Shown here piece after piece: positions 15,201 to 18,200 of a stretch of 64,000 nucleotides of DNA. This DNA is from Eledone cirrhosa. Taxonomy: Eukaryota. Each line of letters starts with the position of its first letter. Position 1 is the stretch's first letter. The stretch lies in assembly GCA_964016885.1 (NCBI GenBank), contig OZ024741.1:361646001-361710000 (forward strand), in the 5' to 3' direction. The notes under the pieces were generated by a model. It searched no databases, was not told the DNA's origin, and saw only the letters and a program-made list of their open reading frames with translations. The translations under genes and the position numbers were made by a program.

Positions 15201-18200
15201 CCTCCCACTTCACTTGGTCCTAAAAAATAAATGAATTGGTAATAACAATAGTAATTTTAGAGGATACACTGTTTTAGGAATTGTTTTTATACTCTCTGTA
15301 CTCATCTTCGGATTTACACACGGTGCATCTGGGAGCAGTGATTAGTCTCTCAGTTAAAGAGCTCAAATGTGGCAAGGCTGCTGGGAAGATGAAATCTGGC
15401 CTGAGATGTTAAAAGCCTTAAATAGAGAAGGTATTCTCTAGCTGACTCATGTATGCTAGGTGGCCTGGATCTCTGGAAGGGCACCTAAGCTATGGCAATC
15501 GGGAGTAATAATCCCAATTTTCAAAAAGTGAGACAAGAGAAATTGTTCCAATTACAGAGGGATCTTCTTGTTAAGCCTCTCTACTAAAGTCTATGCTAAA
15601 TGTCTAACAAAGAGATGTAGGGAGATTGTCGAGTCCAAGCTGGATGATGAACAGTGTAGTTTACATCCTAGATGCAGAACAGTGTAGTTTACATCCTAGA
15701 TGCAGAACAGTCTAGTTTACATCCTAGATGCAGAACAGTGTAGTTTACATCCTAGATGCAGAACAGTCTAGTTTACATCCTAGATGCAGAACAGTCTAGT
15801 TTACATCCTAGATGCAGAACAGTCTAGTTTACATCCTAGATGCAGAACAGTCTAGTTTACATCCTAGATGCAGAACAGTCTAGTTTACATCCTAGATGCA
15901 GAACAGTCTAGTTTACATCCTAGATGCAGAACAGTCTAGTTTACATCCTAGATGCAGAACAGTGTAGTTTACATCCTAGATGCAGAACAGTCTAGTTTAC
16001 ATCCTAGATGCAGAACAGTCTAGTTTACATCCTAGATGCAGAACAGTCTAGTTTACATCCTAGATGCAGAACAGTGTAGTTTACATCCTAGATGCAGAAC
16101 AGTCTAGTTTACATCCTAGATGCAGAACAGTGTAGTTTACATCCTAGATGCAGAACAGTCTAGTTTACATCCTAGATGCAGAACAGTCTAGTTTACATCC
16201 TAGATGCAGAACAGTCTAGTTTACATCCTAGATGCAGAACAGTCTAGTTTACATCCTAGATGCAGAACAGTCTAGTTTACATCCTAGATGCAGAACAGTC
16301 TAGTTTACATCCTAGATGCAGAACAGTCTAGTTTACATCCTAGATGCAGAACAGTGTAGTTTACATCCTAGATGCAGAACAGTCTAGTTTACATCCTAGA
16401 TGCAGAACAGTGTAGTTTACATCCTAGATGCAGAACAGTCTAGTTTACATCCTAGATGCAGAACAGTCTAGTTTACATCCTAGATGCAGAACAGTGTAGT
16501 TTACATCCTAGATGCAGAACAGTCTAGTTTACATCCTAGATGCAGAACAGTCTAGTTTACATCCTAGATGCAGAACAGTGTAGTTTACATCCTAGATGCA
16601 GAACAGTGTAGTTTACATCCTAGATGCAGAACAGTCTAGTTTACATCCTAGATGCAGAACAGTCTAGTTTACATCCTAGATGCAGAACAGTCTAGTTTAC
16701 ATCCTAGATGCAGAACAGTCTAGTTTACATCCTAGATGCAGAACAGTCTAGTTTACATCCTAGATGCAGAACAGTGTAGTTTACATCCTAGATGCAGAAC
16801 AGTCTAGTTTACATCCTAGATGCAGAACAGTGTAGTTTACATCCTAGATGCAGAACAGTCTAGTTTACATCCTAGATGCAGAACAGTGTAGTTTACATCC
16901 TAGATGCAGAACAGTCTAGTTTACATCCTAGATGCAGAACAGTGTAGTTTACATCCTAGATGCAGAACAGTCTAGTTTACATCCTAGATGCAGAACAGTG
17001 TAGTTTACATCCTAGATGCAGAACAGTCTAGTTTACATCCTAGATGCAGAACAGTGTAGTTTACATCCTAGATGCAGAACAGTCTAGTTTACATCCTAGA
17101 TGCAGAACAGTGTAGTTTACATCCTAGATGCAGAACAGTCTAGTTTACATCCTAGATGCAGAACAGTCTAGTTTACATCCTAGATGCAGAACAGTGTAGT
17201 TTACATCCTAGATGCAGAACAGTCTAGTTTACATCCTAGATGCAGAACAGTCTAGTTTACATCCTAGATGCAGAACAGTGTAGTTTACATCCTAGATGCA
17301 GAACAGTGTAGTTTACATCCTAGATGCAGAACAGTCTAGTTTACATCCTAGATGCAGAACAGTCTAGTTTACATCCTAGATGCAGAACAGTCTAGTTTAC
17401 ATCCTAGATGCAGAACAGTCTAGTTTACATCCTAGATGCAGAACAGTGTAGTTTACATCCTAGATGCAGAACAGTCTAGTTTACATCCTAGATGCAGAAC
17501 AGTGTAGTTTACATCCTAGATGCAGAACAGTCTAGTTTACATCCTAGATGCAGAACAGTCTAGTTTACATCCTAGATGCAGAACAGTGTAGTTTACATCC
17601 TAGATGCAGAACAGTCTAGTTTACATCCTAGATGCAGAACAGTCTAGTTTACATCCTAGATGCAGAACAGTGTAGTTTACATCCTAGATGCAGAACAGTG
17701 TAGTTTACATCCTAGATGCAGAACAGTCTAGTTTACATCCTAGATGCAGAACAGTCTAGTTTACATCCTAGATGCAGAACAGTGTAGTTTACATCCTAGA
17801 TGCAGAACAGTCAACCAAATATTAGCACTGCAGTAGGTCTTCGAAATTGTGGGAGTATTACCAAGAAGTATATTCTTCTTTTGTCGACCCTGAGAAGGCA
17901 TATGACCGCGCTCCTCGGGACCTTCTGTGGAAGGCTGTGCAGGAGTATGGGATTGATTATCAGCTTCTTGCTGCCTCTATACGAATGCTCGAGTATTTGT
18001 GTTTGGATAAATGGTGCTAAATCGAAACCATTCAATGTGGGAGTCAGACTCCGCCAAGGGTGTGTACTGTCACCTCTCCTGTTTATTATTTCACGAACAG
18101 GATTGTCATGCACAGCCAAGTTGGAAGTGGTGTCATGACTGGTGGGTGTAAAATCAGTCAGCTGGAATTTGCAGACAACATGGTACTACTTAACTCAACC

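Follow-up and report, generated by a model that had tools for sequence, protein, structure and literature searches.

A single-locus 28-bp minisatellite that probably expanded recently within a decayed RTE-like LINE in a CLASRP intron

Introduction

Tandem repeats that arise from transposable elements have been catalogued in the human genome, where the available part of one survey counts 7,276 of them, including 601 from L1 (Ahmed and Liang 2012, PMC3389668). According to the same portion of that report, 300 of the human transposon-derived repeats carry flanking direct repeats of 5–20 bp, most often of 7 bp, and only 6% of cases have a start that the known models can account for. Under the flanking-repeat model (Haber and Louis 1998), as presented in the accessible sections of PMC6947457 and PMC3389668, a motif lying between direct repeats of 5–10 bp is duplicated, and the resulting array then grows by slippage, conversion, or unequal exchange. 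Microhomology-mediated joining has been added as a further route (PMC9659126, in the part available).

Transposon-derived minisatellites with 7-bp flanking repeats have already been published for human, and the array described here adds one more. No report on this locus or on the birth of a cephalopod minisatellite was found in a literature search of article listings and opening lines of abstracts, with few subscription papers among them. The locus itself matters little, being an intronic repeat in dead LINE DNA and one of many. Its value is that of a clean worked example of minisatellite birth, for which hundreds of paralogs reveal the ancestral sequence. Because the known models account for so few of the human starts in the accessible text of PMC3389668, well-resolved births are of some value.

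Results

A pure array with two unit types

The window analyzed here is a 64,000-nt stretch of the Eledone cirrhosa genome (G000:C2:361646001-361710000). A first-pass annotation, made from the letters, had placed a 77-copy array of 28 bp at 15649 to 17812, and this description proved accurate: TRF reports a period of 28, 77.3 copies, 97% matches, and 0% indels over that interval, and an exact count gives 77 units followed by 8 terminal bases (GAACAGTC). The units fall into two types that differ at position 8, which is C in 50 units and G in 27. Outside this position, exact counting on the assembly sequence finds zero substitutions or indels among the 77 units.

When 26 bases of the unit were searched for in the 3.0-Gb assembly, 77 exact matches came up, every one inside the array, and the reversed 26-mer, used as a control, gave none. 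The search that had been proposed earlier for the same 28-mer expanded in other copies of the LINE consequently came back empty, as did a search for a second family copy with the array site duplicated, which used a tight pattern that is blind to decayed copies and to other periods. With highly similar head-to-tail units in the 10–100 bp range, one variable base, and a single location, the array is a single-locus minisatellite, which is a known and common sort of repeat. The array and its surroundings in the host gene are as follows.

10664 to 10709, plus strand: CLASRP exon preceding the host intron, a prediction based on protein match, splice signals, and frame
10710 to 20182, plus strand: predicted host intron, 9473 bp, GT..AG
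15649 to 17812, plus strand: minisatellite, 77 units of 28 bp and 8 terminal bases, two unit types (TRF and exact count)
20183 to 20252, plus strand: predicted CLASRP exon downstream of the host intron

The earlier placement in a CLASRP intron also holds. A 742-aa homolog (P0093) aligns exon by exon, in collinear order, with the window and the DNA upstream of it, an exon encoding the DRY_EERY domain is found on the same strand 24 kb upstream, and the intron is predicted to have GT..AG boundaries. The host gene has the composition of this family, with an N-terminal DRY_EERY domain, an RS-rich body, and no further Pfam domain; DRY_EERY is the sole Pfam content of P0093. Compared with Atlas clusters named CLK4-associating SR protein (CLASRP), P0093 scores 0.96, although its recognition value falls short of the tool's threshold, and the closest named protein match for the gene is a cuttlefish protein (89%). 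The array contributes 2.1 kb to this 9.5-kb intron on the CLASRP sense strand; the donor is 4.9 kb away from it and the acceptor 2.4 kb.

The host LINE and its family

The unit belongs to a transposon copy, whose LINE sequence continues without a break on both sides. This copy extends from 15303 to 18946 and has a 7-bp CTCTGTA duplication on each side.

15294 to 15300, plus strand: left target-site duplication CTCTGTA, followed by 2 extra bases before the LINE start
15303 to 15648, plus strand: 5′ part of the LINE (pre-RT and start of the RT) in a 5′-truncated RTE-like copy with stops and frameshifts
17813 to 18946, plus strand: 3′ part of the LINE (rest of the RT, C-terminal region, stop, and 7-nt 3′ end, with no AAG tail)
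18947 to 18953, plus strand: right target-site duplication CTCTGTA, abutting the LINE end

The proposal that the array arose inside a LINE reverse transcriptase was confirmed by its paralogs. A query with the left flank returned 4400 family candidates at first look, of which 40 were scored, and the array site is present without the array in 29 of 29 fetched copies, ungapped in 25 of them. Collapsing the array to one unit restores contiguous RT sequence, as had likewise been claimed. In an alignment to an intact relative (P0007), amino acids 554–657 match 15358-15669 and amino acids 674–902 match 17844-18515; once 76 units are removed, 46 nt remain for 16 codons.

The LINE pieces in the window match the Pfam model RVT_1 weakly (E 0.01–0.07), and five of six pieces from better-kept paralogs match it well, with a best E-value of 1.7e-17. 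Two relatives at ~60% identity, P0007 and P0013, have a single ORF with AP endonuclease and RT, and the truncated window copy retains only the RT of this pair. In 21 of 23 paralog 3′ ends, the stop codon is followed by 7 nt and then AAG, so that a trinucleotide tail stands after GCG. At the 3′ junction of the window copy (18940-18953), the AAG tail of the family is absent and the target duplication directly abuts the last conserved base.

On the ORF layout of the relatives and the 3′ ends of the paralogs, the host element appears to be an RTE-like LINE, which resembles Rex3 and Expander elements. One ORF with AP endonuclease and RT in the relatives and a very short 3′ UTR with a short repeat tail are features of the RTE clade, and the description of RTE LINEs in the available part of PMC1291365 fits the family. 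Rex3 elements are described, in the accessible text of PMC6274825, as having GAA repeats followed by a tandem GATG/GATC tail. In contrast, none of the 23 paralog ends of the host family carries a GATG/GATC tail, and AAG runs are present instead.

Other LINE sequences were seen along the way. A related piece at 30593-31267 on the minus strand, opposite to the host LINE, is 80.6% identical over 700 bp, and further pieces at 29078-29862 and 9980-10304 are ~69% identical to the host LINE. A longer LINE of another family lies at 37632-40644 on the minus strand, with endonuclease-like and RT frames in pieces (RVT_1 E 8.9e-16). Elsewhere, four near-identical copies of one LINE site (L081-L084, G000:C2:338.35-338.49 Mb) are spaced 43–47 kb apart and represent a recent large tandem duplication.

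A perfect heptamer pair confined to the expanded copy

The 7-bp microhomology GAACAGT that had been said to bound the unit is indeed present at both ends of the array, at 15649 and 17805, and its length falls within the 5–10 bp that the flanking-repeat model calls for.

15640 to 15655, plus strand: 5′ arm of an imperfect direct repeat of 16 bp with a lag of 28, 13/16 matches
15649 to 15655, plus strand: 5′ heptamer GAACAGT with G after it, as is usual in the LINE family
17805 to 17812, plus strand: 3′ heptamer GAACAGT, followed by C, where the family state is GCACAGC and then C

In the family, GAACAGT on the 5′ side is followed 28 bp on by GCACAGC, which is a 5/7 match. The two bases that complete the 3′ heptamer are private to the window copy, and the C that follows is ancestral. 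The wider 16-bp arms match at 13 of 16 positions here and at 5–10 of 16 in 25 paralogs, with a resampled chance of 0.00025. A census took in the 446 copies with the 5′ heptamer in which the 3′ heptamer could be scored; in it the window copy was scored at the start of unit 2, where the letters equal those of the terminal heptamer. T is found at position 7 of the 3′ heptamer in 48 of these copies and A at position 2 in 5, and just one of the 446, the window copy, has the perfect GAACAGT pair, which is thus not a family feature. The family offers the 5/7 match, and the perfect pair occurs in the expanded copy only.

Perfect microhomology and expansion therefore appear to go together, as an association without direction. 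For the earlier idea of a microhomology-seeded start, this means that the tie between the perfect pair and the expansion stands, and that the presence of the pair before the first duplication goes beyond what the census supports.

Two changes in the 5′ flank of the window copy are found in 2 of 530 copies, the window copy and one other (L130:1500-1560). L130, which is unexpanded, was considered as a sister or pre-expansion copy and rejected at 79–84% identity. The idea that the array had converted its 5′ flank was dropped as well, given that the flank G at −7 mismatches the present unit and that L130 has the same two changes.

The variable base and the growth of the array

The only variable column of the 28 is the base right after the heptamer, which is G at the 5′ end of the array and C at the 3′ end. 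The family has C after the 3′ heptamer in 16 of 25 paralogs. By our own arithmetic, the chance that a variable column would stand beside the heptamer and carry the flank allele is ~1 in 40–80. Because the variable base matches the base that follows the 3′ heptamer, the variant C is likely derived from the flank, and the two unit types would be the versions found at the two ends. The simplest reading of the variant is a junction that fell one base past the microhomology, and on this reading the 3′ heptamer would have been perfect or nearly so at that time. As a general rule, flank-derived variants were rejected: none was seen at the 16 ends of 8 other arrays, where 1.3–2.6 would be expected by chance, in a check that skipped 8 further background arrays that had lost register and also a 60-mer array in the window.

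The order of G-type and C-type units carries some structure. There are 45 runs versus 36 by chance (p=0.017), a 16-unit block is repeated (p=0.034), and seven GC dimers stand in a row (p=0.0015), all three values being uncorrected for several tests. No periodicity was found in the order, the best lag match being 0.66 at lag 33 (p=0.64 versus shuffles), and the variants are not strictly periodic as rolling-circle copying would have them. The repeated block, the dimer runs, and the lack of a period suggest that units and blocks were copied stepwise rather than from one rolling circle, so the single circle that had been suggested as a route of growth is not borne out.

The mini-hairpins noticed at first do exist as letters, with TCTAG..CTAGA in C-type units only and absent from G-type units. 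Folding was no better than in shuffled sequences for any of the seven sequences tried (z −0.04 to −1.25), and hairpin-driven expansion was rejected on this ground. Among 63,664 LINE-matching bases of 60 copies there is no exact two-copy duplication of 10–130 bp; across 62 copies, TRF reports five repeats of two units each, at least one of them in another inserted repeat.

The expansion is probably recent

The flanks of the array differ from the commonest paralog base in 50 of 587 and 22 of 298 columns (7.4–8.5%). The unit differs from it in 6 of 28, and these six differences are common to all 77 units; four of them fall at positions where many paralogs changed too. Because all units carry the decay changes of the copy and differ from each other at one base only, the expansion came after the decay. 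Private changes number 0 in the 2156 bp of the array, where ~170 would be expected at the age of the flanks (95% bound 0.14%, own arithmetic). The expansion, or at least the last homogenization, is thus younger than ~2% of the age of the copy (again our own arithmetic, at the 95% bound). These results agree with earlier remarks that the array is nearly homogeneous in a decayed LINE and that it expanded recently, long after the LINE had died.

The genomic background of arrays

A background sample of 99 stretches of 10 kb (990 kb), in which 8 stretches were chosen near the window and small chromosomes were over-sampled, was searched with TRF. It holds 48 non-simple arrays of at least 8 units, which take up 11.9% of bases and occur in 37 stretches. 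At least 20 units are present in 29 of them, 7 of these at ≥95% matches; with at least 50 units there is 1 at ≥95%, and none of the 48 has that length at ≥97%, many being clipped by the 10-kb length of the stretches. The window array, whose combination of length and purity none of the 48 reaches, lies at the pure end. The genome-wide total of arrays may, by rough inference, be of order 10^4.

None of 38 background arrays lies within 100 bp of DNA that matches LINE proteins, which makes up 42,114 of 990,000 bases (4.3%). The units of 13 of 38 arrays recur as a dispersed repeat in a 1.29-Mb sample. The 7 pure long arrays (≥20 units, ≥95%) are all on smaller contigs (L090-L190) and none comes from the four largest (C1-C4), and array density may differ by chromosome class. 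At 44705-49184 in the window there is a 60-bp array of 74 units whose unit matches a dispersed repeat at 21 other fetched loci, making it a second transposon-born array in the window. A 39-bp satellite, for whose unit no dispersed match was found, occupies 49345-64000, the next 10 kb, and a stretch 40–50 kb further (L175, L176), which would come to ~65 kb if continuous. Finally, a 48-bp array occurs on two contigs (L139:71-10000 and L023:1-825); its unit matches 24 sample loci and is a dispersed repeat that expanded more than once.

Discussion

How the array may have formed

We consider it probable that the array began as a microhomology-seeded local duplication of a 28-mer from the RT of a dead LINE and then grew stepwise and recently, with function unlikely. 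In this course of events, the RTE-like LINE first inserted with its 7-bp target duplication and decayed by ~8% from its family, as the present copy shows. Decay would then have turned the family 5/7 match, 28 bp apart, into the perfect GAACAGT pair that is seen today within the 13/16 imperfect repeat; the state is there to be read, and the order is our reading of it. Replication slippage or microhomology-mediated repair could next have duplicated the 28 bases, and at least one junction one base past the heptamer may have brought the C of the 3′ flank into a unit and so created the second type. Slippage, unequal exchange, or gene conversion would afterward have copied units and blocks up to 77, presumably too recently for new point mutations to persist.

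Alternative explanations

The alternative that deserves the most attention is that the perfect heptamer was made in part by the array. The first duplication would have used a 5–6/7 match, and a later exchange between a unit and the 3′ end would have rewritten the terminal heptamer. This is possible, though we doubt it. None of the 445 other copies has a perfect pair, which is thus rare where no array exists (frequencies of 47/445 and 4/445 predict ~0.4); each of the two bases private to the 3′ heptamer matches the one 28 nt upstream; and T at position 7 alone is common (~11%) and would give an exact seed of 5 bp. However, the C-type units have the full GAACAGT ahead of a flank-type C, an arrangement most simply explained by an already perfect donor end; none of the 77 units keeps the family C at position 2, so that all such units would have to have been lost; and among the 4400 first-look candidates one perfect pair is expected by chance. 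In a bolder, rather unlikely version, a template switch that tolerates a mismatch would have brought the only internal variant in from the 3′ flank, and the array itself would have completed the flanking repeat. If it were true, the flanking repeat that is usually deemed the cause of minisatellite birth would here be a product of the array, and the ~10^4 pure arrays, together with paralogous transposon copies, would allow a cause-or-consequence test of the flanking-repeat model.

The remaining alternatives fare worse than a microhomology-seeded duplication with stepwise growth. One-step amplification, in which a small DNA circle is excised, copied as a rolling circle, and reinserted in place, would suit the high purity and lack of indels, and the heptamer pair could conceivably release a circle of 28 bp or several units; it is nonetheless improbable given that the G/C order is aperiodic and that its local blocks and dimer runs fit stepwise copying. 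An artefact of the assembly, in the array or its length, is more improbable still. No array-spanning read or contig was seen, and the contigs that hold the locus come from one study that possibly includes the source sample, but a misassembly would hardly yield an aperiodic two-state pattern free of indels. Five runs from two studies, which may include the source sample, hold the left flank whole or in part, and in the bin of the array unit contig depth, which is no copy number, reaches 1614 in X2 and 868 in X3 (one sample) and 195 in X5 (another), compared with ~9, 7, and 2–4 on unique flank. In run X1 (share 0.04), from another organism with the same LINE family, the array bin has a depth of 0.77 and the unique flank is uncovered. 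The run depths support many units in real DNA, though they give no count. It is just as hard to credit that the array modulates the splicing or expression of CLASRP, with the CCTAG of each unit as a possible weak acceptor on the sense strand. The array does occupy a sizable part of the intron in the pre-mRNA of a splicing regulator, on its sense strand; yet the nearest splice site is 2.4 kb away, all six reading frames meet a stop codon after a few units at most, there is no stable fold, and arrays of like kind are everywhere in the genome. The array shows no sign of function, and a function is unlikely. Least credible of all is an origin in the LINE's own RT slipping during retrotransposition, or as a feature of a LINE subfamily. 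Younger human elements give more tandem repeats, which the authors of PMC3389668 link, in the part of their report available, to retrotransposition. Here, however, the units share post-insertion decay without diverging from one another, the unit is found nowhere else in the genome, and L130, which alone shares the 5′ flank change, is unexpanded at 79–84% identity. An expansion younger than ~2% of the age of the copy rules out birth during retrotransposition.

Comparison with known systems

The array was earlier taken for a probable polymorphic VNTR; should its length indeed vary among individuals, it could serve as a marker whose internal code has two states. Its host resembles the RTE-clade LINEs of PMC1291365 and PMC6274825, as far as their available text describes them, in its one-ORF relatives, very short 3′ end, trinucleotide tail, and target duplication; the tail is a feature of the paralogs and not of the window copy.

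The array shares with the human transposon-derived minisatellites of PMC3389668 a unit that comes from within a retrotransposon and was expanded in place at one locus. According to the accessible part of that survey, the human cases mostly have 2–3 units and the long arrays are more diverged, whereas here 77 units differ at one variable base. The human examples derive from L1 and other elements, and this one from an RTE-like LINE in a cephalopod. With the flanking-repeat model the locus has in common a unit bounded by short direct repeats and a subsequent expansion. It differs in what the paralogs reveal: hundreds of them document the ancestral state, only the expanded copy has the perfect repeat, and the variant base seems to stem from the flank.
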